Origin: Leptospiraceae bacterium
GTDB lineage: Bacteria; Spirochaetota; Leptospiria; Leptospirales; Leptonemataceae
Direction: 5' to 3'
Assembly: GCA_040217195.1 (NCBI GenBank)
Contig: JAVJNR010000008.1
Coordinates: 540,198 to 604,197 of the forward strand
DNA: 64,000 nt
Positions 21,421-54,703 of the stretch are shown here, piece after piece. The position numbers and the translations under genes are program-made. The notes beneath the pieces are model-generated. The model saw only the letters and a program-made list of their open reading frames with translations. It made no database searches and was not told the DNA's origin. How positions within the stretch are numbered: the first letter of the stretch is position 1; every line of letters begins with the position of its first letter.

Positions 21421-21918
21421 GTGTCAGTCAAAGAACCTGATTTTGTATTGGACATATTCCTCCGTCCGGGGGAGTTTTTCTGGGGCGATGCTACCACCAG
21501 GATTCGCACTATCCTGGGAAGCTGCGTGGCTATCTGTCTATGGCATCCGGAACTCTGCGTCGGAGGTATGAGCCACTCCATACTTCCCCGCCGAAAAACC
21601 CCGGAGCTACCGGAAAAAGGCCAGGAAGCTCGCTATGTTGACGATGCTATTGACCTATTCTTGAGAAACATCAGGAAATCCGGTACAAATCCGTCCGAAT
21701 TTCAGGTGAAGGTATTCGGAGGAGGAAGCTTCTTCGCCGGTGGAGAAAATGACCGTTCCGTTGGGTCCATGAACGTGGCTATTACCCGGGAACTACTTCA
21801 GGATCATGGATTTCGAATTCACAAAGAACACCTGGGCGGAATGGAAGGCCGCAATGTATTGTTTCATCTATGGAATGGAGAGGTCTGGATGAAGCGCATT
21901 GCCATAACAAATCGATGA
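21421..21918 (+). CDS. cheD: chemoreceptor glutamine deamidase CheD
   Basis: GTG start. LGSCVAICLWHPELCVGGMSHSILP is the CheD catalytic-Cys signature. Stop overlaps the cheB ATG (ATGA). Confidence 0.85.
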   Translation: MSVKEPDFVLDIFLRPGEFFWGDATTRIRTILGSCVAICLWHPELCVGGMSHSILPRRKTPELPEKGQEARYVDDAIDLFLRNIRKSGTNPSEFQVKVFGGGSFFAGGENDRSVGSMNVAITRELLQDHGFRIHKEHLGGMEGRNVLFHLWNGEVWMKRIAITNR

Positions 21919-23003
21919 TCAATGTAGCCATAGTAGATGATTCAGCGGTTGTCCAGGAGACATTCAAGCTGCTCCTGAGCCAGGACCCGGATATCCATGT
22001 ATTGCATACTGCAGCAGATCCTATTTTTGCGCTGCATAAGTTTAAAAAGCAATGGCCGGATGTAATTATCACAGACATCGAAATGCCACGCATGGATGGC
22101 ATAGCTTTTATTCGAGAAATTAAAAAAACTCACGATACTCCCATCATCATCTGTTCCTCGGTTACCGGTGAACTTCCCCGGAGCACCATCGCAGCTCTGG
22201 AAGCCGGAGCCATCGAAATCATCCCCAAACCTCAGCTTGCAGTAAAACAGTTCCTCCAGGATATTGAGCACAAGGTAATTCATTTAATCAAGGCCGCCGC
22301 CGCATCCCATCCTTCGGCCCCTCCTCCTGCTCGCGAAAGCTCAGGCACCGGGACGGTACATACCATTTCCAGGTCAGTCCCTTCATCCACTTCCAACTTT
22401 GAACAATTACTGGACGATCCCAGAAGTAAGATGCCCTGCCGGATGGTGGCCATCGGAGCGAGCACAGGTGGTGTTCAGGCTCTTGAAAGCATTATCACAG
22501 CGCTCAGGCCTCCATTGCCACCCATAGTCATTGTTCAGCATATGCCGGAAAAATTCACAGAAGCTTTTGCCCAGAGACTGGACCATATTTCCACCGTACA
22601 TGTTCGGGAGGCCAGGGATGGAGAGAATCTGAAAAATAGCACGGTGTACATCGCTCCGGGCAACTATCATCTGGAGGTGCGCCCGGATGCGGCTGGATTT
22701 GCCTGCAAGGTATCCCAGGGGGATCCAGTGAACCGTCACAGACCGTCGGTCGATGTTCTATTTCACTCCGTGGCCCAGCACGTGGGAAAGCTAAGCGCTG
22801 GAATACTGCTCACCGGGATGGGCGCTGACGGAGCCCAGGGACTACTTGAAATGAGACAGGCAGGGGCCAGAACCTGTTGCCAGGATGAAGCCAGTTCTGT
22901 AGTATTTGGAATGCCGTACGAAGGTATTCGCATTGGGGCTGCGCAGACAGTTATTTCGCTGGACAGAATGCCCCAGTACATTGCCTCCCTTGTACACAGG
23001 TAA
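21915..23003 (+). CDS. cheB: chemotaxis response regulator protein-glutamate methylesterase CheB
   Basis: Receiver domain (VAIVDDSAVV..ITDIEMPRMDG). Methylesterase domain (AIGASTGG, VIVQHMP, LLTGMGADG). Confidence 0.9.
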   Translation: MINVAIVDDSAVVQETFKLLLSQDPDIHVLHTAADPIFALHKFKKQWPDVIITDIEMPRMDGIAFIREIKKTHDTPIIICSSVTGELPRSTIAALEAGAIEIIPKPQLAVKQFLQDIEHKVIHLIKAAAASHPSAPPPARESSGTGTVHTISRSVPSSTSNFEQLLDDPRSKMPCRMVAIGASTGGVQALESIITALRPPLPPIVIVQHMPEKFTEAFAQRLDHISTVHVREARDGENLKNSTVYIAPGNYHLEVRPDAAGFACKVSQGDPVNRHRPSVDVLFHSVAQHVGKLSAGILLTGMGADGAQGLLEMRQAGARTCCQDEASSVVFGMPYEGIRIGAAQTVISLDRMPQYIASLVHR

Positions 23004-23192
23004 TACCCTACCCCCCGTTCCCTGACCGGTTCCTGTATATATTTGACTTTACTTAATACATATTAATTGGTAGCGGCCAGATTTTGCTTGCAAAATGAAT
23101 TCACCTGCCGCTAAATCAGTTGAGATTTTCGTCAGATAGAATGAGATTAGTCCCCCTGCACTGGCATATAGAGTTTTCAAAAAGGAAATATT

Positions 23193-23573
23193 ATGAGTAA
23201 AAAGATACTGATCATAGACGACTCTCAATCCATGCGTAGCTTCACCCGCATGGCCCTGGAGGGAGCCGGTTATGCCGTTGAAGAGGCTGTGGATGGCCAG
23301 GATGCCCTGGATAAACTGGAAAAGGAGAAGTTCGATACAATCCTTTCCGACCTAAACATGCCGAACGTTAACGGAATTCAGATGATTGAAAAAATCCGCG
23401 ATGACGATCGCTATGAAAGCGCCCGCTTCACACCGATAATCATGCTAACCACCGAATCAGAGGAAGAGAAGAAGCAACAGGGGCAAATGGCCGGGGCTCG
23501 TGCATGGCTGGTAAAGCCTTTTGCGCCGAGCCAGCTGGTCGCCGTAATGCAGAAAATTTGTCCCCTGGACTGA
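23193..23573 (+). CDS. cheY: chemotaxis response regulator CheY
   Basis: 126-aa single receiver domain (ILIIDDSQSMR, ILSDLNMPNVNG, WLVKPF). Confidence 0.9.
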   Translation: MSKKILIIDDSQSMRSFTRMALEGAGYAVEEAVDGQDALDKLEKEKFDTILSDLNMPNVNGIQMIEKIRDDDRYESARFTPIIMLTTESEEEKKQQGQMAGARAWLVKPFAPSQLVAVMQKICPLD

Positions 23574-23580
23574 GGCATAC

Positions 23581-23946
23581 ATGCTGCAGATTGAGCAAGA
23601 AAGTAATCAGGGAGTCATCCTTAAAGCCTCCGGTTCCTGGACCATCGATCAGGTGGCCGGAATCTGGAAGTTACTGACCCCTCATCTTCATGGTAACGTG
23701 GCTATCAATGCTGAAGGCGTTGAGCGGATGGATTCTGCCGGACTACAAATACTACTTATGGCCAAAAAGAATGCAAACGATGCCGGCAATGTATTCAAGA
23801 TTCTGAATCACTCGATTGCTGTTCTTAAGATTATGGATCTATCGGGAGTTCTGGGCTCTCTTCGAGACCAGATTCGGATTTCCGCTTCCGAGAAAGAGGC
23901 CCTGAAGCTAACTTATAGTCGAAAGCGATATAGCCTCTACGAGTAG
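23581..23946 (+). CDS. STAS-domain protein (anti-sigma-factor-antagonist-like) embedded in the che operon
   Basis: 121 aa. The MDSAGLQILL motif corresponds to the SpoIIAA-type DSSGL phospho-Ser loop. 7 nt after cheY and 3 nt before cheA. Confidence 0.7.
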   Translation: MLQIEQESNQGVILKASGSWTIDQVAGIWKLLTPHLHGNVAINAEGVERMDSAGLQILLMAKKNANDAGNVFKILNHSIAVLKIMDLSGVLGSLRDQIRISASEKEALKLTYSRKRYSLYE

Positions 23947-23949
23947 ATT

Positions 23950-26142
23950 ATGGATCTCAGCGAAATCCAGAAAGCCTTTGTAATTGAGATTCGAGATCTA
24001 CTGGATCGCGTGGAGGACAGTCTATTTCAGCTGGAGCAACAGACCACTCCCGGCGAGCTGGATGCACTCTTTCGTGCTCTCCATACAATTAAAGGAAACT
24101 CTGGAATCTTTCAGGCCAGGCATCTAGAGTCTTTTGCACACACAGTAGAAAGCCTGCTCGATAAATACAGAAGCGACCCATCACTATTCAATCCATCCGA
24201 CGTACCTTTACTACTTTCCTGTAGAGATCATATTGAATCTCTATCCACTGCAGAACTGGCTGAAGGGGCCACCGGTCAGATCCCGGACGAAGTGTTCCAA
24301 CAGGACAAAGAACTCAAGAGTCAGATTTCGCTTCGCCTGGAGGAGCTTTCCGGTCCACAGGACAATACGGAGAGTATGACATCGGAAGAACAGGCCGAAT
24401 TCGGTGTCTCTATCGGACCACCATTAAATCATCTTTCTGGAAGCTATCATATTTCCTTCCGACCTCCCGGGGATGCTATGAAGGCAGGCCTGGACCCTTT
24501 AAACTTCGTTCGATTTCTAAGAAACCTGGGTCAGATTCAATGCGTATTTACTGTACTGGATGGGTTGCCAACCTACAGCGACCTTGATCCGCAAATGGCA
24601 TACCTGGGATTCGAGATCTTACTGGAAAGCGAAGAGCCCCCGGCTGCCATAGAGGATGCCTTTGAGTTTATCAAGCAAAACGGAATTCTACGAATCCATA
24701 CGTCCGAAAGCACTGCTGCAGATTATAGACAGACTATAGAGACACTTCCAGAATCAGAAGAAAGGCTGATCAAAATCTGGAAGGAGATGCCTTTTGCATT
24801 GCCTCTGGAAAAACTTCAGGCAGGTTCCCAGGCCGCGCCTGGACCGGCCCAGGCCCCGGTAGAGCCAAAGATACAGTCTCAGACCGAAGTACCATCCTCG
24901 GCGAATACCGCCAGGCCAGCCTCTTCGGCCCCCGGTTCTAACTCTATAAACTCTACATCCGCTCAGGAAGCATCGCAGACCACGTCTGCCAGTGCCCACT
25001 CCACATTGCGTGTAGATGCCTCGCGTCTTGATGCATTGATCAACCTGGTGGGGGAGCTGGTCATTCAGTCCCAGAGCTTGAAACAAATATCCCGTGTATC
25101 CAAGGATGCTTCCCTGGGGGCATCAACCGACACTATGGAAAGGCTTATAGAGGATCTGCGCCAGCAGAGTATGAGTCTTAGAATGATAGAGATTGGTACT
25201 GTATTCCAGAAAATGCGTCGGGTAGTACACGATGCATCCATCGATCTAAAGAAAAAGATTCAGCTAAAATTGCAGGGCGAAGAGACGGAGCTGGATCGCG
25301 GAGTGATTGAACGAATACAGGATCCTCTGATACACCTGGTAAGAAACTCCATCGACCATGGCCTGGAAACTCCTGAAGAAAGAACCCAGGCTGGAAAATC
25401 TGAGACAGGAACCATTGAGCTGCGAGCCTTTCAGGACATGGGCCATGTTGTGGTAGAAATCGAAGACGATGGACAGGGAGTGAGCACTGATGCAGTTAAG
25501 AGAAGAGCCATCGAAAAAGGGATCATGACCCAGGACCAGGAAGTGGATCCAGAGGCACTTCATCAATGGATTTTCCATCCTGGATTTTCCACCAAAGAAA
25601 CAGTGAATCAGTATTCTGGTCGCGGCGTGGGCCTGGATGTTGTGAAGCAGGATATTGAAGCCCTGGGCGGTTCAGTTCAATTGAGAAGCGTTGAGGGTCA
25701 GGGAACAAGAATTACATTAAGACTGCCCCTTACCCTGGCCATCATTGATGGATTCCTGATTCGGGCGGCTGGTGTACACTTCGTAGTTCCTCTGGATATG
25801 GTATTTGAATGTACGGAGCTTTCGGCACATAAACGAACCGGAAATGCAGGCAATTATATAAATCTACGGGGCGATGTGGTTCCCTGTGTAAATCTTCCAG
25901 AAGCGTTTCAGATGCAATCGCCGGGAGCAAATGATCTGATTGTACTCCAGCAGGGAGACAATCGAGTGGGCCTGGTGGTGGATGAGCTTCTGGGAGAATA
26001 CCAGACAGTGGTAAGAAAAGGCGGCAAGGTTCTCAGTAACCTTCCTGGAGTGAGCGGCGTTACGATCCTTGGAACAGGGCAGATTGCCTATATCCTGGAT
26101 GTGAGCTCATTTTTCGGGGATAGAGAAGCCAGAGCCAGTTAA
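23950..26142 (+). CDS. cheA: chemotaxis histidine kinase CheA
   Basis: Hpt box ALHTIKGNSG, a long low-complexity linker, HATPase motifs (HLVRNSIDHG, DDGQGV, GRGVGLDVV) and a C-terminal CheW-like domain. Confidence 0.9.
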   Translation: MDLSEIQKAFVIEIRDLLDRVEDSLFQLEQQTTPGELDALFRALHTIKGNSGIFQARHLESFAHTVESLLDKYRSDPSLFNPSDVPLLLSCRDHIESLSTAELAEGATGQIPDEVFQQDKELKSQISLRLEELSGPQDNTESMTSEEQAEFGVSIGPPLNHLSGSYHISFRPPGDAMKAGLDPLNFVRFLRNLGQIQCVFTVLDGLPTYSDLDPQMAYLGFEILLESEEPPAAIEDAFEFIKQNGILRIHTSESTAADYRQTIETLPESEERLIKIWKEMPFALPLEKLQAGSQAAPGPAQAPVEPKIQSQTEVPSSANTARPASSAPGSNSINSTSAQEASQTTSASAHSTLRVDASRLDALINLVGELVIQSQSLKQISRVSKDASLGASTDTMERLIEDLRQQSMSLRMIEIGTVFQKMRRVVHDASIDLKKKIQLKLQGEETELDRGVIERIQDPLIHLVRNSIDHGLETPEERTQAGKSETGTIELRAFQDMGHVVVEIEDDGQGVSTDAVKRRAIEKGIMTQDQEVDPEALHQWIFHPGFSTKETVNQYSGRGVGLDVVKQDIEALGGSVQLRSVEGQGTRITLRLPLTLAIIDGFLIRAAGVHFVVPLDMVFECTELSAHKRTGNAGNYINLRGDVVPCVNLPEAFQMQSPGANDLIVLQQGDNRVGLVVDELLGEYQTVVRKGGKVLSNLPGVSGVTILGTGQIAYILDVSSFFGDREARAS

Positions 26143-26240
26143 TGCGCCGTACGGATATTGTACCATCCGGCGGCCAGATTAGTGGAATGATCATATTTCG
26201 GATACCGGGTCAGAATTAATCCTGGATTTCCGATTGGAGA

Positions 26241-27914
26241 ATGAAAATGTTAAAGAATCTATCGGTGAAAGCAAAACTTGGAGTGCTGTTAACGTTACTG
26301 AGCACACTATTATTGGTCATCGGCTCACTGGGGCTGTATGGAATGAACGACGTAGTGACCAGTCTTCGCAGTGTCTACAATGATCGTACAATACCCCTCG
26401 AAAAACTGGCAAAAATTCGCGCCCTTCTACTATTAAACCGAGTTGCCATTACTGCAGCCGTAACATCGGAAGACGAAGCCTTCATTAGAGAAGAAATCGC
26501 ACAGGTGGAAAGCAACCTGAAGGCCATCGATGAGGAATGGTCTGAATACATGCGAACCAACCATACCGATGAAGAAGACCGACTGGCCCAGAAGTGGGAG
26601 ACGGACTATGCGAAGCTTCGAGATGATGGTATGGAAGTAGCAATAGCCCAGTTAAAGACGGGAAACCAGGAAGGAGCCAACAATACAATCGCCACCAGGA
26701 TCAGGCCACTCTATGAACCTGTGGGCAAAGATATGGATGATCTGGTGGAGCTTCAAGACCGGTTAGCAGCCGAATTATTCCATGCAGGTGAGGCCGAGTA
26801 CAATGTAATTTTGATTATCACCGTAAGCGCAATCGTGATTGGCGTGTTGTTCGCCATTATTCTGGGAGCTCTGATTATTCGAAGTATTACCAATCCGTTG
26901 GCCAGAGCAGTGGACCTGGCCAATCGCCTGGCCGAGGGAGATCTCACTCATCAAGTAACCGTAGATTCTAAAGATGAAATCGGTAATCTGATGGAAGCTC
27001 TGCGCAACATGGTGATCAAGCTATCTGCTATTATTTCAGAAGTTCGCCAGAATGCAGGAATCTTGAATCAGGTTTCGCAGCAGGTAAACTCCTCGGCTCA
27101 GTCCATGAGCCAGAATTCCTCCGAACTTGCAGCCAACGTAGAAGAAAGCTCCTCCACGATGGAAGAGATGGTATCTAGCATAGTACAGAATACCGAGAAT
27201 GCAGGACTTACGGAAAAGATTGCGCAGGAATCCGCCGGTGCAGCCAAAGAAGGTAGCGCCGCCGTGCGACGAACCATCGATGCAATGCAACAGATCGCAG
27301 ACAAGATTAACGTAGTACAGGAAATCGCCTACCAGACCAACCTGCTGGCACTGAATGCAGCCATTGAAGCAGCCCGAGCCGGCGAGCATGGCCAGGGATT
27401 TGCAGTTGTGGCCACTGAAGTGCGAAAGCTGGCCGAACGAAGTAGAGGATCGGCTCAGGAAATCAGCGAAATCGCAGCCAATTCAGTCGATGTGGCAGCA
27501 AAAGCAGGAACTTTGATCGAAGATATGCAACCAAGCATCCAGAAAACGGCGGATCTAGTCGTTGAAATCTCTGCATCATCGCGACAGCAGAAAGATGGTG
27601 CAGAACAGATCAATACAGGAATTCAACAGATGAGCCAGGTATCTCAGCAAAGTGCCTCCTCGGCTGAAGAACTGGCAGCCACTGCCGAAGAATTGTCCGG
27701 TCAGGCTGATTCTTTACTTGATAACCTGTCTTTCTTTAAAGTAGATGAAAGCAAGTCCGGCCAGAAGAAGCGTGGTGGCTATCAATCGGCCTCTACTGGC
27801 CTGGGAGCCGCCCAACCGACAAATGGCCGATCCAACGAACCTGCGAGAGCGGCGCAGCCCAGAAAACAGGATTCGGAAAGCTCTGGCAATCAGGCTGATT
27901 TTGAGAAATTCTAA
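26241..27914 (+). CDS. methyl-accepting chemotaxis protein (four-helix-bundle sensor, HAMP, MA domain, C-terminal tether)
   Basis: Two TM helices flank a ~170-aa periplasmic region. HAMP ([18 protein letters not shown]). Hairpin core [37 protein letters not shown]. Ends in ..DFEKF. Confidence 0.9.
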
Positions 27915-27917
27915 ACC

Positions 27918-28493
27918 ATGGCTGAAGATAGACAAATACTTTCGTTTAATTGTGGAGACCAGGTCTTTGGCCTGGAAATCTCATTCCTTCGAGAGATCAT
28001 CGAAAACCAGACTTTGACTCAGATACCTCTGATGCCCGAGCATATTCGAGGTGTCTTAAATCTACGTGGTAACGTGGTGCCCGTTATCGATCTGAAGGCC
28101 AGATTGTGGGGCATGACCACCAGGGTAAGCAAGCTCAGTTGCATTCTGGTTGTGGAATTTCATGGAAAGGCTACGGAAACCCTGGGCCTTCTTGTGGATT
28201 CAGTCAATGAGGTGATCCGCGTACCCGCGGAGAATGTGGAGCATACTCCTGAGCTGGGGGCACGCATCCGAACTGACTTTATGGACGGAATTGCGAAGGT
28301 AAACGATGAATTCATCATCCTGCTTAGAGCGGACATGGTTCTGAATCTGGATGAGCTGGCTCAAGTTCATGAAACACTGAAACTAACAGGCAAAGATCTC
28401 ACCGAGGAACTTCCCCCATTGGACGATACACTACCGGAAACTGAATCCGCTGGTTCTAAAACAGATCGTCCGGCCTCCTCTCAGTCCACGTAA
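27918..28493 (+). CDS. cheW: chemotaxis coupling protein CheW
   Basis: CheW-like domain (FGLEISFLREIIE, IRGVLNLRGNVVPVIDL) plus an acidic C-terminal tail. Confidence 0.85.
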   Translation: MAEDRQILSFNCGDQVFGLEISFLREIIENQTLTQIPLMPEHIRGVLNLRGNVVPVIDLKARLWGMTTRVSKLSCILVVEFHGKATETLGLLVDSVNEVIRVPAENVEHTPELGARIRTDFMDGIAKVNDEFIILLRADMVLNLDELAQVHETLKLTGKDLTEELPPLDDTLPETESAGSKTDRPASSQST

Positions 28494-38371: not shown

Positions 38372-41300
38372 ATGACTGAAATCATTATCTTCTTTTTAGG
38401 TACCGTTGGTACAATCCTAACTTTTGCTGCATTTTTTATCCCTATCTATCTATTATTCAAAGTCTCCTCCCTGTCCAGGCGAGTCCGGGAACTGGAAAAC
38501 CAGATTTCTTCGCCAGCCGGCCAGAGCATGGTCCGGGAGCCAGAGCCGCCGACTTTTACCGCGGAGCAATCCTATTCTCGCAGAGAGCCATCAGGCGTTA
38601 CGGTTATTGAACAGAGCAAACAAGATACTCCGGCTGCAGAGTCCGCCTCTGCAGCCCGCTACATGGAAAGCCAGGGAAGAAACGCAACAGCCATCCCAAC
38701 CAGTCCTCAGGAAAGAGAAGTAGAATCGCCAGCAGTTCCCCCTCCTCCCACGGCATTTGAGCTGGGCTGGAAAAAGCTGGAGGCTGCACTGGCTGAAAAT
38801 TGGACCGGAATCCTGGGTACCATTATACTCGTAGTTGGCGTTGCCTTTCTGGGTGTGTATGCAGCACTCAAAATGGGACCGTTCTTACGCTTCCTGATGG
38901 TTCTGGGCATTGCAGCAGGACTGTTCGCAGCATCCGTCTATCTGGCCAGGAAAGAACACTGGAGACCCCTGGCCGTATGGATTCGTAGCGGATCGGGAGC
39001 CATCCTGCTTCTGGCCTGTCTGGGATCCGCTCTTTTCCCTGCCATGCGATGGGTTCATGATGAGAACCTGGCTCTTCTACTGATTTTGTTTGGAGTAGGC
39101 GCAAACCTGGCCCTGGCCTGGTGGTCTTCCGTTCAAACGGTGGCCTCAATTCATACGGCAATCAGTATACTTGCACTCTTGATCCTTCCAAAAAGTCCTC
39201 TTTTATACTCCATCATCGCAGGAATCAGTATTTTCAGTACATACCTTTCCTATCGGGCCAGATGGGAATTCCATTTGCTACAGGCAGTATCCGTTTTCTT
39301 TCTTGCGAACCTGGTTTATGGAATGCATTACGGGGCTCCAAACAACGAAATCCACGGTGGAATTCGCTGGATTGGACTGTTTTCTACCGGTGCAGTATCG
39401 GTACTTGCATTACTACTGCATTATCGTTCTCGTTATGGAAATAAATCCTTCGAACGATGGCCTTTCATTTCGCATATAGTCACCTGGGCTACAGCGGCTC
39501 TTGGATTTGCACTCTACAGTAGTGGGTCCAGGATCAATACCATCGTTCTATTTTCAGTGGCTCTGGCTGTTTACCTGCATGCGCGCAGGGCGAGGAATTC
39601 CAAAATTCGCTGGCTGTATCATACAGACTCCATAATGGCATTGCTGATTAGCCTTCTTGGTGCATTAACTTTGCAAAGATGGGAATGGGACCTGCTGGCT
39701 TCAGGACTGGTATGCACAGCACTGATGCTTGCATTCTCGGTGGCCGCCAGCATGGAAAGAGAAACTCTATTAAAGGGAGTCGGTGTTATTCTACTTCACA
39801 TCGCCTGGGTTTTTCTCTCGGTTATCTTTTTCGCAGAGCTAACTTCCCATCGATTGTGGTATCAATCCGGTATACTGCTTGCCTCCCTTATTCTCTCTCT
39901 GGCCTATATCTGGTTTGACAGGCATAGAATTAATGAAGAGGAGCGACTGGATGCATCCCTGGGATTATCCGCTGGAAGTCCGTTATCTTTTTCGGGAGTG
40001 TTTTCGGGCATTTTCGTTCTGCTTCTTGCCATTACGCTTCGTAACGTAGAGAATGCAGAGTATTACATCTCCGGCCTGTCTCTGGCTCTACTCTTTAGCC
40101 TGCATGGATTCAAGCTAAATCAGCTCTCTTCAGCAGTACTACCGGTTTTATTTGGATTACATTTCCTGGTATTCTATCGAGCCTATGACCAGTCTCCAGG
40201 GTTGCAGGTCTTTACCGATGCCCCACTGCTCATCTTATTTCTGGCAGGCATTCTTCTGGCACCCATGAATATTCCTGGCAAGCAACCATGGGTTCAAAGC
40301 AGGTTATTCGCAGTGCTTCTGATCATTCACGTAATCGCATTGACCTATATTCTGTCCAGTCCCCATTCCAGTCTTCTACCGGGAGTACTGTGGCTATCTC
40401 TTTCCATCGCTTTTCTGGAAATCGATCGCTGGTCTGTGTCCGGAAAATCAAAACTACTCTCTGGAATCCAGCTTGCCCGGCCAGTGTGGTTTCTGGGCGC
40501 CCTATCCATGGTACTTCTGTTTTTAATTTCGCATCTATTCGTGCATCTTCAGAGCGAAACCCTTCTGGGGCCTATTAGAGCCAGGCTCTTGATTCAGATC
40601 TACGCCATATCTGTATTTCTATACTGGGCCATGACCGGCCCTCTGGTTCAGAAATCCGATACTGGCATCCTTTCCAGGTTCGCAACGGTCTTCTGGGAGC
40701 TGGTAATCCTGTTTTTATCTATGGCTGTAGCCCTGGAAATGGGGCCGGTCTGGCTGCCTGTAATCTGGATCCTTCTGGCCGGGCTACTACGTTATTCTAT
40801 AGTCTGGAGCATCATTCCAGGCCGATTCGAGATCTATTCAATATTCTTTTTCTGGGCCTCGGTCATCCATACAGCGGTTGTTTCGAGCACTTATGCAACT
40901 CCTTCGAATTTCCTGGCAGACCAGGCATGGTTTGGCGGACTGATTGCAGTTGCCGGGCAACTAATCTATCTGCTCCTGCAGTATTCTCCATATCTGGGGC
41001 ATAGAGAGCGCAATACGCCGATTGACTGGCTGAGCCAGAGATTCCAGCGCTTCCAGACCGTAGCGGACCGAAAGGAGCTTTCGATTTTCTATCCACTGTT
41101 TCTGTCTGTTGCTCTATTTCTATTCTGGAGCTTCGATAGTTCATTGCTCACCCTGTTCTGGATGATTGAAGTATTTGTTGTATTTATCATTGGACTTCGA
41201 CTGAACCAGGACCACTTCCGATATGTTGCACAGATTGCCATGGTAATCTGCTTAATTCGTCTGATATTTTTTGATTTGAGCCAGTCCAGCGTCGCAATGC

Positions 41301-41398
41301 AAGCGTTTGTATTTCTGGGAGTTGGTGGTATCATGATTCTAATGAATGTAATCTACCGTAGATTTCGCTCGAATCAGAGCCCCTCTGATAAAACCTAG
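38372..41398 (+). CDS. very large polytopic membrane protein, DUF2339-like
   Basis: 1008 aa. N-terminal TM plus a short coiled segment (SSLSRRVRELENQIS), a Pro/Ser-rich spacer, then more than 20 TM helices. Architecture is typical of DUF2339 (from memory). Confidence 0.6.
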   Translation: MTEIIIFFLGTVGTILTFAAFFIPIYLLFKVSSLSRRVRELENQISSPAGQSMVREPEPPTFTAEQSYSRREPSGVTVIEQSKQDTPAAESASAARYMESQGRNATAIPTSPQEREVESPAVPPPPTAFELGWKKLEAALAENWTGILGTIILVVGVAFLGVYAALKMGPFLRFLMVLGIAAGLFAASVYLARKEHWRPLAVWIRSGSGAILLLACLGSALFPAMRWVHDENLALLLILFGVGANLALAWWSSVQTVASIHTAISILALLILPKSPLLYSIIAGISIFSTYLSYRARWEFHLLQAVSVFFLANLVYGMHYGAPNNEIHGGIRWIGLFSTGAVSVLALLLHYRSRYGNKSFERWPFISHIVTWATAALGFALYSSGSRINTIVLFSVALAVYLHARRARNSKIRWLYHTDSIMALLISLLGALTLQRWEWDLLASGLVCTALMLAFSVAASMERETLLKGVGVILLHIAWVFLSVIFFAELTSHRLWYQSGILLASLILSLAYIWFDRHRINEEERLDASLGLSAGSPLSFSGVFSGIFVLLLAITLRNVENAEYYISGLSLALLFSLHGFKLNQLSSAVLPVLFGLHFLVFYRAYDQSPGLQVFTDAPLLILFLAGILLAPMNIPGKQPWVQSRLFAVLLIIHVIALTYILSSPHSSLLPGVLWLSLSIAFLEIDRWSVSGKSKLLSGIQLARPVWFLGALSMVLLFLISHLFVHLQSETLLGPIRARLLIQIYAISVFLYWAMTGPLVQKSDTGILSRFATVFWELVILFLSMAVALEMGPVWLPVIWILLAGLLRYSIVWSIIPGRFEIYSIFFFWASVIHTAVVSSTYATPSNFLADQAWFGGLIAVAGQLIYLLLQYSPYLGHRERNTPIDWLSQRFQRFQTVADRKELSIFYPLFLSVALFLFWSFDSSLLTLFWMIEVFVVFIIGLRLNQDHFRYVAQIAMVICLIRLIFFDLSQSSVAMQAFVFLGVGGIMILMNVIYRRFRSNQSPSDKT

Positions 41399-43720: not shown

Positions 43721-46402
43721 TCACTGAGTAAAAGTGGTATCGCTAAGCAGAAAGAAATCCACATGACCGTTCATGGGAACACCAGGAATACGAATCTGGT
43801 TTCCCACGCCCATTGTTCGCAGCTGCTGGTAGGTAAATAACATCAGAGCATTCTCTTGTACATAGCGATCCAATTCTTTAAGAGCCTTTTCATGCTCCGC
43901 CGGATCTGCCTTCTTCATGGCAGCTTCGTATACGGAATCGTAGTCCGGATCGCTTAGAAGAGAGAACAATCCAGCAGAGGATAGAAAAAGCCCTGCATGA
44001 AAGGCCATGGTATAAACCGGATTGTCCACCATGTTGAATGCAATGTCGCCTTCGTATGGATTGCCCATGACTTTACCCACAACAACCCTTTCGGCCCATT
44101 TAGGACGGGAGACCACTTCAAGCTCCAATTCCACTGAAATTGTGGCAAGTTGCTCTTTTACAGTCCGGGCAACGTGCTCGGCAACGTCCGAGGTAATCGC
44201 TCTGAGACTAAAACCCTGCTCATATCCAGCCTCTTTCATCAGCTTTCGCGCCTTTCGCAGATCGTAGTCATACGGCTTTAGCTGATCATTGGCTCCAAAG
44301 GAACCCTTCAATCCCAGAGAGGACAGTGGCTCTCCATTTCCATTCTCTGCGCTCTGAATTAAGGCTTTTCGGTCGATGGCAAAATTCAGGGCCTGGCGGA
44401 TACGAACATCAGCAAGCGCTCCCTGATTTTTTAAGAATACCCAGGGACTTTGCAATACCAGTCGTTTCTGAATATTTGCCACATCGGAACTTGCCAGAAG
44501 GTTTTCTTTACTTCCGGACAGATAGGGAACCAGATCCACCTCACCGGCCAGTAAGCGATCGGCCCATCGACGCTCGGGCAGAATTTTGATCTCCAGCTCC
44601 TGGGCGGCGGGAAAACCCTTTCTCCAGTAGCGGGCATTTCGCTTAAGCCTGTATCTTTGCCCGGGTTCATGATCAATAAATTCAAAAGGACCGGTGCCCA
44701 CTGGATGTTTTAAAGCTTTTTCCAGGCCGACCTTCTTAACGTAGCGGCTGGAGCTAATCAATCCAAACATGGTAAGACGGTTCAAGATCATTCCATCTGG
44801 CTCTTGTGTGCGAATGATTACTGTGCGGGGATCCTTTATTTCCACGGACTGGATAGTAGACATGATCCATCCAGTACCGCTTCCGGTGGTCGGATCCAGG
44901 ATGGTATCCAGAGTAAATTTTACATCGCTTGCATCGAATGGACTACCGTCATGAAACCTCACTCCAGAGCGTAATCTGAACTCATAGGATCTATCATCCA
45001 ATTGCTTCCAGGAAGTGGCCAGTCCAGGTACCATATTTCCATCCAGATCGTTGTGAATCAGACTGTCATAAATTTGACTCTTAAGCGAATAAGAGTCAGG
45101 ATCAAAGGATGGACTGAGGGTGCTCAATGCCGGGACATCTCCAGAGAACATTGTAACTGAAAGAGTATTCTTCTTTCTTTCCTTCGTACGCTTTCGTTCC
45201 GAAATTCGAACTACATCTCCTTTTGTCTTTTGAACAATATCTTTTAGCTCCTCGCTATTTACTGAAACCTTGTGAACTGATTCCGAAGCCTCCAGCGATA
45301 ATTGATATGATTTATCCAGTCTGGATATTATATCTTTGATACTGAGTGCCTGCTCATCGGAAAGGTCCTTAATATTTGCACCACCGGAAGCAATACTGTG
45401 CACTGCACTGGTGATCTCTTCCATAGTGCTGGCATGATGGCCCATGGCACCGGAAATGTGTTCAATTCTATCCCGAGTTGTATGAACGGATTGCGCAATT
45501 GTTCCCAGAGTCTCCACCATTTCCTTCGCACTTTCCACGGCGGATCCAACATCAGATGAGGCATTGTTTACTTCTGCGGAGAGATTGTTCATCTCCTTTC
45601 GAGTGCCCTGGATCAATTGATGAATGGCCCGGGTGGAATCCTGGGATTTCTCGGCCAGCTTCTTAACTTCATCAGCAACCACGGCAAAGCCCCTACCAGC
45701 ATCACCCGCTCGGGCTGCTTCAATAGCAGCGTTAAGGCTCAAAAGATTAGTCTGCTCGGAGATATCATCTATGACTTTCGTAATCTGTCCCACTTCCTCA
45801 ATGGACTGACCGAGCTTACGAATCTGTTTCTGAATGCTTTCGAATACAGCAGTAATGGAGGCAACATTCTGGCGGTTGCGCTCCATAAGTTCACCGCCCC
45901 GAGCGGCCCTTTCGCTCATGGTACGCGCCGCCTCGGATGTTTCGGTAGCGTTGCGAACAACTTCCTGAATGGTTTCCGATACGGACTGAATTGCAGTGGA
46001 TGTTTCTTCTGTGGACCCGGTCTGATCCCCAACCTGATCCACCGCTTTTTGGGCCAGATCATTTAGGCCGCCCAGTCTCTCCTGAACTTCCATTACACTG
46101 TTAATCTGATGGTTCACGGCTTCCTGAATAATACTCACATCATCGGCAAGGTTAATAACGTATGTTTCCAGCCGTTGAGCTGTGGTTCTTAAATCTCTTA
46201 CACGATGCAGGTTACGGCGCTCATCGCCGCGAAAACGTTGAAGAAGAAATACTATGGACAGAAAGAATAACCCAATGGCTGTGCTTTTGAGGAGCAGCCA
46301 TTGCCAGCCAGGAAGCCATCCCGGTTCTATGTACCATCCAATATCTACGACCATCCCGGTAGCTGCAATTAGGCCCGCCAGAATGTAATGCTTAACCCTC
46401 AT
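43721..46402 (-). CDS. chimeric chemoreceptor: 2 TM + MCP signalling domain + C-terminal family-5 solute-binding-protein domain
   Basis: One continuous 893-aa ORF. TM1 aa 6-24 and TM2 aa 34-55. MA hairpin [38 protein letters not shown]. From aa ~413 come SBP_bac_5 signatures: [59 protein letters not shown] and [13 protein letters not shown]. Confidence 0.85.
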
Positions 46403-46650
46403 ACCCTCTCCCTTCAGAACTTCAGGACCTGAATTATTAGTCCGGAAAGGAAATGCGTCAAGATTCTTTTGTCCAGGGTACTAAAAACCTAAAGAAAACG
46501 TCCTAGATTATACCAGTAGAAACTAGGAGGGAACCTACAGACAGTTCATGTCCGTACTCTCCGGGTTAAGGTTTGCCAAGGCGTATTTACATTGAGTATG
46601 AATCTCAAAGATTTCTATTGGCTGTATGCTAGTAACAGGAGGGCTGGATC

Positions 46651-46800
46651 ATGACAGGCAGTACTGCCGATTTCCCTCCGTGCCCGCAACTATGGGCCCG
46701 GAATACAGGTTTCAATCTCTCACAGAATGACAGTCCACGCAAACGGCAACTTGGTTGGCAAGGTATCGACCTCGCTCTATGGATTCCGAGCTATTGTTAG
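46651..46800 (+). CDS. possible 49-aa small ORF
   Basis: ATG preceded by AGGAGG, 8 nt upstream. Below the ORF-track cut-off. No recognisable family. Lies in a 657-bp ORF-free spacer. Confidence 0.2.
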   Translation: MTGSTADFPPCPQLWARNTGFNLSQNDSPRKRQLGWQGIDLALWIPSYC

Positions 46801-47059
46801 CTTCAAAGTCCGGATAACCCTCTCAGGGTAAGTCCAAAAACAGATAGAGAAGCAGTGCACAAATTCAAGCAATGAAAAGGAAAACCATACCCGCGTCTAG
46901 CTTCTTCATGCAAACAGGCATCCCGGATATGAAATTCGGTCAACTGAGAACCATTGGGACCTGGAGTTCTGGAAGCGAAAATTATGAAGCGAGCATTTGG
47001 TAGTTCCGAAAAGGGGCAGACCCTTCCAGTCAAAGCCCCTTCCCCGCTTGACTATTCGC

Positions 47060-51352: not shown

Positions 51353-54300
51353 TCATTCCACCTCAATGGCTATGACAGCAATGTCATCATCAATCTCACC
51401 TGGCCCACCGGAGTAATCGATTAGCCGGTCCATTAGTTGCGTTAACCAGGCATGGATTTCAATCTCTGTTGATTCTGCAAAGCTGCGGACCAGTTCCTCC
51501 ATTCCAAAAAGTACCCCCTCTGGAGAGGAAGCCTCAAATGCACCGTCCGTATAGATAAAAACCCGGTCCCCGGATTCCAGCGAAACAGGTTGGCTCAATT
51601 CATAGGCACCATCCGTAAGCAGTCCCATGGGCCGTCCGAACGGTCTGTATTGCGCAATTTCTTTAGTAGATTTCTTCCAGTGCAACAAAGGTGGATGCCC
51701 TGCATTGGCCAGGTACAGAACCTTCTTCTCCAGATCGATTTGCAATGCACAGGCAGTTACAAATTCATGCCCAACGTTGCCATAAAGCATTTCGTTCAAG
51801 CCGGCCAGCAATTCATGCGGTAGAATGGATTCCTTGCCCTGGAATACGTATGCCATCTTGAGCACAGAGACAATCAGTGCTGCAGGTACTCCATGGCCGG
51901 ATACATCAGCGATGATCAAGGATAAACTCCTTTCATCTTGTTGAAAATCATAGAAATCACCTCCAACATTTACCATAGATCGATAGAGGTGCGCTATTTT
52001 AATCCCCTGCGGAGATGGCAGAGTTTCCGGAATAAGAGATTGCTGGATCATCCGTGCCATGGAGAGTTCATTCTGGATGACTGCCATGTCTGCCTGAGTT
52101 CTGGCCGCCTCTTTCAATGCCAGAATATTCTGGACTCGCGCACGAAGCTCCTCCGGCTCAAAAGGCTTGGCCAGATAATCGTTTGCCCCGCTGGCCAGAC
52201 CTTCTACTACATCCTGGGTTCTACTTCGCGCAGTCAGAAGGACAATGGGAAGGTCAGTGTAAGAATGGGACTGGCGAAGAATTCTGCAAACCTCATAACC
52301 GGTCAATCCAGGCATCATTACGTCCAGTAGAACCAGATCCACCGGACCAAATTCCTGCAGGGCCGTGAGCGCTTCCGTGCCGCTGGATGCCTCCAGAATT
52401 ACATGATTTTCTGCAGATAAGAAATTGCGTAATACCTGCAAATTCACAGGGTCATCGTCCACGACCAGAGTGCGAATTACACCGTTCCCACTTTGTTCCC
52501 GGACGCCATCATCCTCTATAACCTCGATTTCAGCCCGTGGCTGGTCCAGCGACCCTGTATCAATTGAATATACCTCTTTGGAATCGATTCCAGTGCTCCC
52601 GGAAGGAATCTGTAGAGGATGAACGGGCAAATCACTTTGCTCCACGGATGCCTGATTTTCTTTGCTAAATACCGGCAATGTGAAGCTGAATTCAGAACCG
52701 CGTCCCTGAGAAGAATTTACATCTATTTCACCACCATGAAGCAACACAAGGTGACGAGTGATGGAAAGCCCCAATCCGGTACCGCTGTATTTTCGACTTA
52801 TGGATCCGTCCGCCTGGGTGAATGATTCAAAAATTGCATCCTGACGATTTTCAGGTATTCCGATGCCGGTATCTCGAACACTGATTCGAACAAATTCGCC
52901 TTCTTCCAATGCCTCCACCTCAATCCGGCCCCGGTTCGTAAACTTGATTGCATTTCCGAGAAGATTAATCAGTATCTGGCTCAATCTTTCTGGATCGGCC
53001 AGGACGGCGGACACCTCTGATCGCCTGTGTATCAAATCTACTGGCTTATCTCGCAATAGGGGTCGCACCAGAGACAGAGCAACGTCCACAGCATCAGGCA
53101 CTTCAACTTTCCTGAGCTGCAACACCAGGTCTCCATGGTTGGCCCTGGAAAAATCCAGAATATCATTTACAAGGGTTGTGAGTCTCCGGCCACTGGCAGC
53201 CACAAGTCGCAAATTCTCTCTGGTCTGTTCGGAGATTTTGCCTGTGGCCCCCTGAAGCACAGATTCAGTAATTCCAATAATACCGTGCAAAGGAGTTCTC
53301 AGTTCATGGGATGTATTGGCAAGAAAATCATCCTTCAATTCGTCCAGCCTTTGTAAATCCCTGTTTTTTTCGCTCAATTCATGCGAAAGCTCCTCTACCC
53401 TGTTGAATGACCGGGCATATCGAAACGAAAGTAGCGCGGATTGCAGAAAAACGAATGCCAGCAGACTTGCCTCACCAAACTGAATCGTATTGATAGTTCC
53501 TCGGGCAGAGAGTACATCGTTCAGTACACCCAGAAATAATGGAATCCCTCCCATTAGAACGGCCAGACTGTTATCTCTATTCTGGTATACGGCTCTGCCG
53601 AGCATAAAGAGTCCGAAGGCTCCAGATAAAAGCATCTGTGCTTGATAATACCCCACTGACTGACTGAGGGTCAGTGAATCTAAAAAGAATGGAGTCAGAA
53701 GTAGAATCAGACCTGACACTCCAGAGATTATCAAACCTGGGCGGAAAATTGGATCTGGAAACAGACTCCATAAAAACATCAAAAAGAAAAATACGGATAA
53801 TGGAAGACTGCAGTATTCAAGAGAGAGATAGAAATGCCATCCAGGAAGTGCGAATTGATGAAAAAGAAACTCCTGACCTGTGGTCAGTGGACGAATTGCA
53901 ATTGATAAACAATGCAACCCAAAGAATGCCGGTGCATGAGTCCTCCTTCGCACAGCGAACATAAAGATATGATACAACCCAACGATGGAAAAAGCTCCGG
54001 CAAGGAATAAATCCCAGGATAGATCCAGACGTTCCCTTTCCAGAAGAAATTGTGCAGGACCCAGGCGAATTGGTTTACGGATGCCCCCTTCCCGGTAATG
54101 AAAGTTGGATACCGGAATAGTCAAATCCAGACTTTTTGTTTGCGACGGAAGGAATACCAGCCCTGAACGAGGACCGGCAATAGAACTGGCAGCCGTGCCT
54201 GGTTTCCCGCTCCGAATCAGCAGATGTCCGTCTGCATAAACGGCCCAGGCGGTGTAGATCCCTTCTATTCGAAGGGCCAACAAATCGGATGTTTCAGGCA

Positions 54301-54619
54301 AAAGAATTCGAAGATGATATGTACCAACCTTCTCTGGACCGGCTTTTCCCGGATAATCATTCCAGGGGCCCGGTATAGAAACAATTTCAGGCCTGATAGC
54401 TTCAGGCGGAGAGGATACAAGTATTCCCTCGTAATAAGCCCATTCTCCAGCCAGAGAAATGCTCCTGGAATCCAAGGCACTCTGTTGCAAATCCAGAACT
54501 CCATGCACTGCCACAACGTCCGATACTGTGGGCTCCCGACATCCCGTAGCCAGAAATGGAATAAGAAGCATCAAGGTCCGCAGCCGGGGAAGCATTCCTG
54601 ATAATCGGCTTCCGGGCAT
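51353..54619 (-). CDS. multidomain sensor: exported N-domain + 7 TM (7TMR-DISM-like) + histidine kinase + receiver + PP2C/SpoIIE phosphatase
   Basis: Lipobox-like FLATGC. About 170 aa extracytoplasmic, then 7 TM. H-box FLANTSHELRTPLHGI. N/G boxes NLLGNAIKFT, DTGIGI and GTGLGLSI. REC LVVDDDPVNL..LLDVMMPGLTG. PP2C GGDFYDF..IADVSGHGVPAAL. Confidence 0.85.
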   Translation of the reverse strand: MPGSRLSGMLPRLRTLMLLIPFLATGCREPTVSDVVAVHGVLDLQQSALDSRSISLAGEWAYYEGILVSSPPEAIRPEIVSIPGPWNDYPGKAGPEKVGTYHLRILLPETSDLLALRIEGIYTAWAVYADGHLLIRSGKPGTAASSIAGPRSGLVFLPSQTKSLDLTIPVSNFHYREGGIRKPIRLGPAQFLLERERLDLSWDLFLAGAFSIVGLYHIFMFAVRRRTHAPAFFGLHCLSIAIRPLTTGQEFLFHQFALPGWHFYLSLEYCSLPLSVFFFLMFLWSLFPDPIFRPGLIISGVSGLILLLTPFFLDSLTLSQSVGYYQAQMLLSGAFGLFMLGRAVYQNRDNSLAVLMGGIPLFLGVLNDVLSARGTINTIQFGEASLLAFVFLQSALLSFRYARSFNRVEELSHELSEKNRDLQRLDELKDDFLANTSHELRTPLHGIIGITESVLQGATGKISEQTRENLRLVAASGRRLTTLVNDILDFSRANHGDLVLQLRKVEVPDAVDVALSLVRPLLRDKPVDLIHRRSEVSAVLADPERLSQILINLLGNAIKFTNRGRIEVEALEEGEFVRISVRDTGIGIPENRQDAIFESFTQADGSISRKYSGTGLGLSITRHLVLLHGGEIDVNSSQGRGSEFSFTLPVFSKENQASVEQSDLPVHPLQIPSGSTGIDSKEVYSIDTGSLDQPRAEIEVIEDDGVREQSGNGVIRTLVVDDDPVNLQVLRNFLSAENHVILEASSGTEALTALQEFGPVDLVLLDVMMPGLTGYEVCRILRQSHSYTDLPIVLLTARSRTQDVVEGLASGANDYLAKPFEPEELRARVQNILALKEAARTQADMAVIQNELSMARMIQQSLIPETLPSPQGIKIAHLYRSMVNVGGDFYDFQQDERSLSLIIADVSGHGVPAALIVSVLKMAYVFQGKESILPHELLAGLNEMLYGNVGHEFVTACALQIDLEKKVLYLANAGHPPLLHWKKSTKEIAQYRPFGRPMGLLTDGAYELSQPVSLESGDRVFIYTDGAFEASSPEGVLFGMEELVRSFAESTEIEIHAWLTQLMDRLIDYSGGPGEIDDDIAVIAIEVE

Positions 54620-54703
54620 TTCAGGCAAGCCAAACGCGAATAAATGAGCGCTGAAAGAAGAAAGACCATAGACCTTGACCGTAATGCAGGGCTTCAGAGA
54701 TTA

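Follow-up and report, generated by a model that had tools for sequence, protein, structure and literature searches.

DcrH of Desulfovibrio vulgaris is a methyl-accepting chemotaxis protein (MCP) with a C-terminal hemerythrin domain (PMC13401364), and TlpD of Helicobacter pylori is an MCP with a C-terminal CZB domain (PMC13001251), McpA of Salmonella being of the same type. How a signal enters via the C-terminal helix is poorly understood, as has been stated for DcrH (PMC13401364). Solute-binding proteins (SBPs) can also be the primary ligand sensors of signalling receptors, as in the case of the SBP_bac_5 members DppA, AibA and CBP, and the known chemoreceptor-linked SBP genes lie mainly beside transporter genes (PMC8050422). 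In SgrR/DsvR, an N-terminal helix-turn-helix (HTH) motif precedes a C-terminal SBP_bac_5 domain, which is a cytoplasmic sensor without a signal peptide (bioRxiv 10.64898/2026.04.01.715812). For Haloarcula, a supplementary file on archaeal chemoreceptors gives SBP_bac_8 in a column apart from the extracytosolic and N-terminal domain lists, apparently as a C-terminal domain (PMC9680633). In contig JAVJNR010000008.1 of a Leptospiraceae bacterium (assembly GCA_040217195.1), within a stretch of 64,000 nucleotides (positions 540,198 to 604,197, hereafter the window), one gene joins a transmembrane (TM) hairpin and an MCP signalling domain (MA; Pfam MCPsignal) to a C-terminal SBP_bac_5 domain. The reading considered here to be probable is that a signalling SBP has been captured as the cytoplasmic C-terminal input module of a sensor-less, HAMP-less, membrane-anchored MCP.

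The initial annotation of the window had described the protein as a single open reading frame (ORF) of 893 residues, in which a canonical MA hairpin motif is followed by a basic linker and by a complete SBP_bac_5 domain from about residue 413 to the C-terminus, and each of these elements was recovered. The ORF list of the window contains the fusion gene without interruption and with an ATG start. Both of the families proposed for verification (PF00015 and PF00496) were found far above the Pfam thresholds: MCPsignal covers residues 185-338 (137.6 bits, cut-off 34.6) and SBP_bac_5 covers residues 457-773 (235 bits, cut-off 32.4). The hairpin motif lies at residues 219-253 and the basic linker at residues 401-412. 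The completeness of the SBP domain is borne out by the Pfam score and by fold comparison with the SBP part of the full-length AlphaFold2 (AF2) model, for which Foldseek gave TM-scores of 0.82 with 5u4o and 0.83 with YliB/GsiB (1uqw), target-normalised, over 474-487 residues.

The fusion is conserved. Full-length relatives with 47-78% identity, and partial ones with up to 85%, were found among 5.8 billion clustered proteins; all have PF00015 and PF00496 and come from ENA, NCBI, JGI, Logan and Tara assemblies. The named sources are metagenome-assembled genomes of 'Leptospiraceae bacterium' and 'Spirochaetaceae bacterium', where the protein is annotated merely as hypothetical. In an alignment of eight sequences, the window protein included, the junction is kept in all seven full-length orthologues (47-78% identity). 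A frameshift or stop codon at the junction, by which the initial annotation would have recognised two separate genes, was not seen: the ORF is unbroken here and in independent assemblies, and the junction is kept to 47% identity. As judged from this comparison, the fusion is not an assembly artefact; it is real and conserved in spirochaetes. One orthologue, P0002, occurs on 123 contigs whose sources include Tara Oceans surface water. Its locus is syntenic with the window, with DUF374, an M48 peptidase and DUF2339 on one side and two unknown genes and a 7TMR-DISM kinase on the other, and no che or ABC transporter genes adjoin the fusion gene at these orthologous loci. In a marine metagenome contig (L097) the fusion copy is split (1684-2394 and 2407-4362) inside the MA domain, not at the junction; this split, due to a frameshift, a stop or an assembly error, accounts for the truncated entry P0007 (651 residues). 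Another locus, L103, was considered as a free SBP gene with a convergent MCP gene and was dropped, the tree and a run-off ORF identifying it as a truncated fused gene.

The signalling part is a long helical hairpin of about 25 heptads per arm. The AF2 model of the full-length monomer has a mean pLDDT of 68 and a pTM of 0.54, and in spite of this moderate confidence the secondary structure was judged clear (Table 1). The arms are nearly equal, with 177 residues between the end of the second TM helix (TM2) and the tip and 167 residues between the tip and the point where the last helix ends, which therefore places the SBP domain at the membrane-proximal end of the bundle. The helices are broken symmetrically at residues 128-131 and 337-341, each about 104 residues from the tip, and these breaks are taken here to be the chemoreceptor glycine hinge. 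At the tip, columns N219-A243 are invariant in both fusion clades. Scanning with the pattern [ASTG]2-x2-[EQ]2-x2-[ASTG]2 gave two matches in the fusion protein, predicted methylation sites in which E132 and E329 are invariant among orthologues. The C-terminal pentapeptide is not present in the fusion protein. The best match of the helical part in the PDB is TM1143 of T. maritima (2ch7, E 4e-25), aligned over both arms, and because this alignment begins 22 residues after TM2 there is no space for a HAMP domain. Compared with TM1143, presumably a 44H-class receptor, the fusion protein has about 7 extra residues per arm and its helices reach about 3 heptads further to the membrane. The invariant tip and the EE sites suggest that the signalling hairpin is a competent MCP module.

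The membrane anchor is minimal. A Kyte-Doolittle (KD) scan with a 19-residue window gave TM-like segments only at residues 7-25 and 35-55, separated by a loop of 9 residues (EPGWLPGWQ), in keeping with the initial annotation of two N-terminal TM helices, a loop of about 10 residues and no periplasmic sensor. Beyond residue 57 the highest KD value is 1.45, at residues 798-816, a conserved core element of the SBP fold. The stretch between MA and SBP thus lacks a hydrophobic segment, as had been noted, and neither the KD scan nor the AF2 model gave a TM or signal segment between the domains. The earlier failure to recognise a HAMP domain also holds, since Pfam gives no match in the fusion protein even at E<=0.1 and the bundle alignment leaves no space for one. 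With its 9-residue loop and no HAMP match, the protein lacks the canonical class I input of a periplasmic ligand-binding domain plus HAMP. Such input is typical of the MCP family, not defining. The charges (R2 and K4 before TM1, an acidic-or-neutral loop, a stretch of 17 residues after TM2) fit an N-in, C-in hairpin, and from this distribution both termini are placed inside. Within the membrane, the D20 position of TM1 is acidic (D/E) in 6 of 7 sequences, P0009 being without that region, and the K39 position of TM2 is K/R in all 8 aligned sequences; these residues may form an intramembrane ion pair in an otherwise sensor-less hairpin. The SBP domain is accordingly placed where the initial annotation had put it, in the cytoplasm and behind the kinase-control module; this prediction follows from the absence of an inter-domain TM segment, from the charge bias and from relatives that have no TM segment at all.

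These relatives came from a profile (A2) built from 14 fusion proteins and run, with no word index, over a library of 1.84 billion cluster representatives (50% identity), the best 150 matches being annotated by phmmer and hydropathy. Both domains are present in 79 of the 150, or in 96 proteins once the fusions of the earlier orthologue search are added. Among these best matches and earlier fusions the order is MA then SBP in every case, never reversed. About two-thirds of the MA-SBP proteins have no predicted TM segment; these TM-less forms comprise proteins of 800-845 residues, tandem-MA forms of 1050-1137 residues and apparent [MA-SBP]x2 forms of about 1600-1690 residues. The remaining ones (about 1036-1073 residues; 881-909 in the clade of the window protein) carry at their N-terminus a TM hairpin or one or more TM segments, and a doubtful hydrophobic stretch between the domains occurs in only 2 MA-SBP proteins. 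In P0012-P0014 and P0016-P0018, whose genes are complete on their own contigs, no hydrophobic segment is found anywhere. Having neither signal peptide nor TM segment, the SBP domains of TM-less fusions must lie in the cytoplasm, and they provide the strongest indirect support for a cytoplasmic SBP domain in the window protein. Two TM-less groups may be merged gene calls: the apparent tandem [MA-SBP]x2 proteins (P0246, P0247, P0257 and P0244) and those with two MA domains before one SBP (P0252, P0254, P0263, P0285 and others). The TM-less fusions P0014 and P0016 (L003, L004) are encoded among peptidase genes (M16, PmbA/TldD, S10, M20, M28), and the SBP domain of their clade keeps the peptide-type motif W-x-GD-x-GDPDNF; this context hints at cytoplasmic or uptake-linked peptide sensing.

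The public names of these proteins are generic, such as 'methyl-accepting chemotaxis protein/ABC-type transport system substrate-binding protein' or 'ABC transporter substrate-binding protein [Thermoanaerobaculia bacterium]'. A description of MCPsignal followed by SBP_bac_5 was not found in the literature searched, the coverage of which did not extend to the cytoplasmic-chemoreceptor review of Collins et al. 2014. The initial annotation had reckoned with an architecture that is common and already characterised; the first half of this holds in so far as the architecture recurs (79 representatives), while for the second no characterisation turned up in that literature. The arrangement thus appears rare and recurrent, not unique, and apparently uncharacterised.

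The linker between the bundle and the SBP domain is basic but variable among orthologues in the eight-sequence alignment, and its position is that of the signal peptide in stand-alone relatives. No signal peptide or lipobox precedes the SBP domain, which follows the MA helix and the basic linker without a hydrophobic segment. Linkage to an ATP-binding cassette (ABC) permease or ATPase was likewise not seen, as no ORF with Walker A and LSGGQ motifs occurs in the window and ABC genes are absent from the orthologous loci. The sequence neighbours in the PDB are 5u4o (1.5e-46), followed by 8upi, AgaA, NikA, YliB, CtaP and HbpA. The initial annotation had suggested a peptide, nickel or opine-like ligand. 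The nearest solved structures bind glutathione, opines, di- or oligopeptides, Ni-chelates and sialic acid; at only 19-24% identity, a ligand guess from them was dropped. All NCBIfam scores for the named equivalogs (NikA, GsiB, DppA, OppA, CntA) are far under their cut-offs, for example 145.6 against 393 for nikA and 122.3 against 594 for GsiB, and a named specificity therefore cannot be assigned. Conservation is high within the subfamily. Among 59 free relatives, 96 positions reach a conservation of 90% or more; at 84 of them the residue is unchanged in no fewer than 7 of the 8 fused sequences, including D434, D436, W465, R478, H484, R766, W769, K777, D793, N794 and H802. Identity to the most distant orthologue locus (L110) is 59% in the SBP half versus 37.5% in the MA half. 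The retention of these positions and the higher conservation of the SBP half argue for a fused domain that is still a functional binding domain. Cysteines number 0 in the window protein and 0 or 1 in the free relatives; neither the fused nor the free group is, on this count, dependent on disulfides.

The origin of the domain is indicated by its free relatives. When residues 413-893 were used as the query, the fused proteins were followed by a compact block of stand-alone SBPs of about 500 residues with 42-57% identity, and then by a sharp fall to 39% or less. Named members come from Desulfobacula, Syntrophobacteraceae, Aliikangiella, Colwelliaceae and Rhodospirillales, and they have the motifs SFDPDSYS, VVSRPEWAxRVVVGK and NLVDNPIxxxAFHxGLFL in common. 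All begin with a typical signal peptide and are therefore extracytoplasmic. Their gene neighbourhoods were sampled by 4 direct look-ups and at 21 metagenome loci found with a subfamily-specific DNA motif, which together gave 17 informative stand-alone loci; a look-up of P0164 gave nothing. At 16 of these 17 the immediate neighbour of the SBP gene, in the same orientation and at a distance of -8 to +155 bp, is a receptor gene, which mostly lies directly downstream and often overlaps the SBP stop codon (Table 1). An ORF with Walker A and then LSGGQ was found at 0 of the 14 subfamily loci that span 6 kb or more, versus 33 of 76 generic SBP_bac_5 loci; the detector is a crude regular expression that requires both motifs in one ORF and is positive in only 43% of the controls, so that this is a comparison and not a census. 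The control loci came from a generic SBP_bac_5 peptide-pattern scan of genome contigs (at least 80 loci, ordinary SBPs with 36% identity or less), and no subfamily members were among the matches listed in that scan.

In a neighbour-joining tree of SBP domains (480 columns, 200 bootstraps), the subfamily of free and fused members is monophyletic (100%, from 100 replicates), as is the fused clade (100% bootstrap), which is sister (98%) to the three free SBPs whose downstream neighbour is an MCP gene. Free SBPs paired with histidine kinases and those paired with GGDEF-EAL proteins group into separate clades (100% and 82%, respectively). For the TM-less fusions P0012, P0015 and P0016, the SBP domain is placed outside the subfamily, and fusion of MA to SBP_bac_5 must therefore have arisen at least twice. 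The SBP domain of the window protein derives from transporter-independent SBPs encoded beside signalling receptors, in particular from the MCP-partnered branch, and not from a transport SBP.

The initial annotation had left a choice between a cytoplasmic ligand sensor and an SBP fold recruited for another purpose. Topology, TM-less relatives and conservation favour the first, a cytoplasmic ligand-binding domain behind the kinase-control module of a chemoreceptor. Anatomy, conservation, topology, domain origin and gene neighbourhood were obtained by sequence analysis, and from them ligand binding, the direction of signalling and the CheA under control are inferred as follows. The TM hairpin anchors the protein without an outside sensor, and the C-terminal helix carries the SBP domain at its membrane-proximal end, on a basic linker of 11 residues. 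Free SBP relatives presumably dock on (d)Cache/HAMP receptors. In the fused protein, a small cytoplasmic ligand, possibly the internalised form of a compound that free relatives bind outside, would close the two SBP lobes. Lobe closure would alter the packing or dynamics of the C-terminal helix, input thus passing via the C-terminal arm and not via TM2, HAMP and the N-terminal arm. The change would travel to the hairpin tip and modulate the CheA/CheW complex, with adaptation by the two conserved EE methylation sites. Such a receptor would report the internal level of a compound which related bacteria monitor in the periplasm. The chemotaxis operon in the window means that the organism has a pathway which the fusion receptor could feed.

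Several points weigh against this capture of a signalling SBP as a cytoplasmic input module. Since the closest free relatives of the domain lie outside the cytoplasm, any ligand shared with them would need to occur on both sides of the membrane. All fused members carry Y653P, I584Y and F445Y at positions that are subfamily-invariant in the free relatives, and W578H where the tryptophan is 88% conserved; these fused-specific substitutions could mean an altered specificity or a lost receptor-docking surface. The topology assignment draws on hydropathy, charge bias and TM-less relatives, the full-length model is of moderate confidence and of a monomer, and ligand binding, methylation and kinase control are putative. 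By the author's estimate, two membrane-proximal domains of about 53 kDa per dimer may be hard to fit into a canonical 12-nm lattice. Furthermore, no che genes adjoin the fusion gene, the nearest che operon being about 15 kb away (CheW ends at 28493), and the MCP of that operon belongs to a different length class, with an N-terminal arm 14 residues (2 heptads) shorter than that of the fusion protein. The fusion receptor may serve another array or pathway than the che operon of the window.

Among the alternatives, the one that survives best, though it is rather unlikely, is that the SBP fold has given up small-molecule sensing and instead mediates protein-protein contacts or docking at the membrane (for example in array assembly, in polar localisation, or in binding a cytoplasmic partner much as the free relatives would bind receptor ectodomains), any sensing occurring via the TM hairpin. 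The free relatives appear specialised for docking on receptors and not on transporters, the substitutions at 653, 584 and 445 are found in every fused member, the conserved D/E and K/R pair of TM1 and TM2 is possibly functional itself, and in TlpD the C-terminal region is required for polar localisation (PMC13001251). However, many of the 84 retained positions are polar or aromatic, and TM-less receptors acquired the MA-to-SBP order independently, with a different SBP_bac_5 of the peptide type, for which ligand sensing is an easier explanation than a specific docking role. Less probable still is a ligand-sensing MCP that feeds a non-motility pathway ('alternative cellular function') in place of flagellar chemotaxis, a proposal compatible with the cytoplasmic-sensor model. 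It is consistent with the location of the gene outside a che operon, with an N-terminal arm 2 heptads longer than that of the che-operon MCP, and with free relatives that pair with histidine kinases and GGDEF-EAL proteins as often as with MCPs, the signal thus serving non-motility outputs elsewhere. On the other hand, the tip motif and methylation sites are canonical, no alternative che cluster is seen within the window, and the closest free SBPs are paired with ordinary HAMP-MCPs.

It is very improbable that the SBP domain is extracytoplasmic, reached through a cryptic TM or signal segment or an inverted topology, and acts like a tethered periplasmic SBP. All close free relatives do have signal peptides, and at L094 and L106 the gene immediately 5' of the SBP gene encodes an MCP, where read-through would first leave an internal signal or TM segment. 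Yet no KD value past residue 57 exceeds 1.45, the linker is strongly basic, the stretch after it is homologous to the first strand of mature free SBPs, the MA domain must be cytoplasmic to reach CheA/CheW, and a predicted TM segment is lacking in about two-thirds of the proteins that share this domain order. An artefact of assembly or frameshift, or a decaying pseudogene that is in truth two genes, can practically be dismissed: the split copy in L097 breaks inside the MA domain and several database entries (P0005-P0007) are partial, but the ORF is uninterrupted in independent assemblies (ENA, NCBI, JGI, Logan, Tara) as well as here, orthologues with as little as 47% identity keep the junction, the SBP part lacks its own start codon and signal peptide, and the architecture is common to 79 representative clusters.

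The public call for the fusion gene (P0001) has 877 residues and, by its length, appears to start at M17. M1 is preferred here because of the Shine-Dalgarno-like element GGGAGAGGG and because residues N-terminal of M17 are kept in the orthologue alignment. The promoter candidate in Table 1 is a pattern match only, the consensus scan giving 7 sites where shuffled sequences gave an expected 5.0. In orthologous contigs a gene for a cytochrome-c-like protein of 325 residues lies directly upstream of the fusion gene (L001, 8615-9592); in the window the upstream gap (46403-47059) is only about 650 bp and, judged by this gap, the gene seems to be absent from the window strain. No CheR gene was seen in the window.

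Table 1. Coordinates of the fusion gene and its parts, of other genes in the window, and of genes beside free SBP genes (loci given by contig).
Feature	Position	Strand	Residues	Basis and remarks
Fusion gene (TM hairpin / MCP signalling domain / SBP_bac_5)	43721..46402	(-)	893	ATG start; stop codon 43721-43723; ORF list, Pfam, orthologue alignment
Shine-Dalgarno-like purine-rich GGGAGAGGG	46404..46412	(-)		just 5' of ATG at 46402; read from upstream sequence
Candidate sigma-70-like promoter TTGACG-17-AATAAT	46433..46461	(-)		10/12 consensus matches; 31 nt 5' of ATG
TM1	46328..46384	(-)	7-25	KD 1.77; AF2 helix 2-25; conserved acidic D20
TM2	46238..46300	(-)	35-55	KD 2.28; AF2 helix 32-127; conserved basic K39
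N-terminal arm of hairpin	45710..46231	(-)	58-231	no HAMP between TM2 and bundle; AF2, 2ch7 alignment
Hairpin tip / CheA-CheW contact motif	45644..45748	(-)	219-253	translation, invariant columns
C-terminal arm of hairpin	45200..45691	(-)	238-401	AF2, 2ch7 alignment
Predicted methylation-site consensus 1	45992..46021	(-)	128-137	E132 invariant
Predicted methylation-site consensus 2	45404..45433	(-)	324-333	E329 invariant
Short basic non-helical linker	45167..45199	(-)	402-412	11 residues; AF2 coil
Complete two-lobe SBP_bac_5 (cluster C) domain, predicted cytoplasmic	43724..45166	(-)	413-893	Pfam, PDB matches, Foldseek
TM1 helix			2-25	AF2
Single unbroken helix, TM2 into cytoplasm			32-127	AF2
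Short break			128-131	AF2
N-arm helix			132-231	AF2
Hairpin tip			232-237	AF2
C-arm helix			238-336	AF2
Break at SGGAN			337-341	AF2
Last C-arm helix			342-401	AF2
Coil			402-412	AF2
First SBP strand			413-418	AF2
Chemotaxis operon	21421..28493	(+)		not adjacent to fusion gene; Pfam for CheB, CheA, MCP, CheW
CheD-like ORF	21421-21918	(+)		name from reading translation
CheB	21870-23003	(+)		Pfam
CheY-like receiver	23193-23573	(+)		name from reading translation
STAS-like ORF	23581-23946	(+)		name from reading translation
CheA	23950-26142	(+)		Pfam
Canonical 4HB/TarH-HAMP MCP	26241-27914	(+)		Pfam
CheW	27918-28493	(+)		Pfam
Polytopic DUF2339-like membrane protein	38372-41398	(+)	1008	syntenic in orthologous contigs
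7TMR-DISM / HisKA / HATPase / receiver / SpoIIE hybrid sensor	51353-54628	(-)	1091	syntenic in orthologous contigs
dCache_1-HAMP-PAS-HisKA-HATPase neighbour	L099, L102, L100, L101			L101 judged by N-terminus
HATPase_c protein neighbour	L089		733
HAMP-GAF neighbour	L096
(dCache)-HAMP-PAS-GGDEF-EAL neighbour	L092, L105, L098, L104
(dCache)-HAMP-MCPsignal neighbour	L007, L090, L107			downstream
HAMP-MCP neighbour	L094, L106			directly upstream; 4-bp overlap in L094, gap of 23 bp in L106
Partial downstream gene	L111			overlapping ORF; counted provisionally among the 16
K+ channel gene (exception)	L006			downstream; Desulfobacula toluolica

These observations lead to a proposal in two joint parts, which is held tentatively and falls a little short of probable as a whole. 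The first part is an unrecognised, transporter-independent SBP_bac_5 co-receptor family, translationally coupled to (d)Cache/HAMP receptors with interchangeable outputs, its clades tracking the partner. The second is that, in marine Leptospiraceae-like spirochaetes, the MCP-partnered branch has moved across the membrane onto the C-terminal helix of a sensor-less, HAMP-less MCP, where it would read the intracellular pool of a ligand that its relatives read outside. If this is true, then together with the independent TM-less clades it would make Venus-flytrap domains a general class of cytoplasmic C-terminal chemoreceptor input, and the SBP_bac_5 fold would join the cytoplasmic sensor domains of chemoreceptors. 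To our knowledge, an intracellular SBP_bac_5 sensor has so far been described for SgrR-type regulators only. An SBP with its large and well-understood ligand-driven closure, placed on a short linker, would offer a tractable model for input through the C-terminal helix. As a Rosetta-stone link, the fusion ties an orphan periplasmic SBP subfamily to signalling receptors and not to transport, and it supplies concrete SBP-receptor pairs for testing, with an MCP, a histidine kinase or c-di-GMP enzymes as the partner. The receptor may also matter for the behaviour of planktonic spirochaetes, given the many contigs and the surface-water sources of P0002.

Compared with known systems, the SBP domain of the window protein has the same full-length fold as the cluster-C SBPs of ABC importers (5u4o of B. 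anthracis, E. coli YliB/GsiB, AgaA, NikA, DppA and GbpA; target-normalised TM-score 0.66-0.83, 19-24% identity). Unlike these, it is without a signal peptide and without nearby ABC permease or ATPase genes. The free relatives resemble the SBPs that act as co-receptors in trans (DppA-Tap, AibA-TlpB, CBP-ChiS, NspS-MbaA) in being encoded beside (d)Cache/HAMP receptors at 16 of 17 loci. They differ from the pattern described for chemoreceptor-linked SBP genes (PMC8050422) in that no transporter linkage was found by the crude motif (0 of 14 loci). In the trans systems a separate periplasmic SBP docks on the periplasmic domain of its receptor, whereas in the window protein, which has no periplasmic domain, the SBP is fused, C-terminal and predicted to be cytoplasmic. 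SgrR/DsvR likewise have a cytoplasmic SBP_bac_5 domain C-terminal to the output module, but their output is DNA binding and that of the window protein is a chemoreceptor hairpin; Pfam places a TM hairpin and MCPsignal, and no HTH, in its N-terminal part. The SgrR model matches residues 439-611 only weakly (E 6.5e-11), and the domain, with 42-57% identity to periplasmic SBPs, is much nearer to them than to SgrR. Haloarcula offers an earlier instance of MCPs listed with SBP-type domains; that case is archaeal, uncharacterised and SBP_bac_8, and the file contains no SBP_bac_5 entries (PMC9680633). With DcrH, TlpD and McpA the window protein shares a globular domain C-terminal to MA, placed on the cytoplasmic side by the domain order and the absence of an intervening TM segment, so that input would necessarily pass through the C-terminal helix. 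In contrast to DcrH and TlpD, the sensor is a bilobed SBP_bac_5 domain of about 480 residues and not a small four-helix hemerythrin or CZB domain; by Pfam, SBP_bac_5 is the only domain after MA, with no hemerythrin, CZB or PilZ. Moreover, DcrH has retained both HAMP and a periplasmic domain, and TlpD is a soluble protein, whereas the window protein has a bare TM hairpin without HAMP. The arrangement is thus known in kind from chemoreceptors with C-terminal cytoplasmic sensors, and what it adds is a relocated periplasmic SBP and a previously unremarked family of signalling SBPs.

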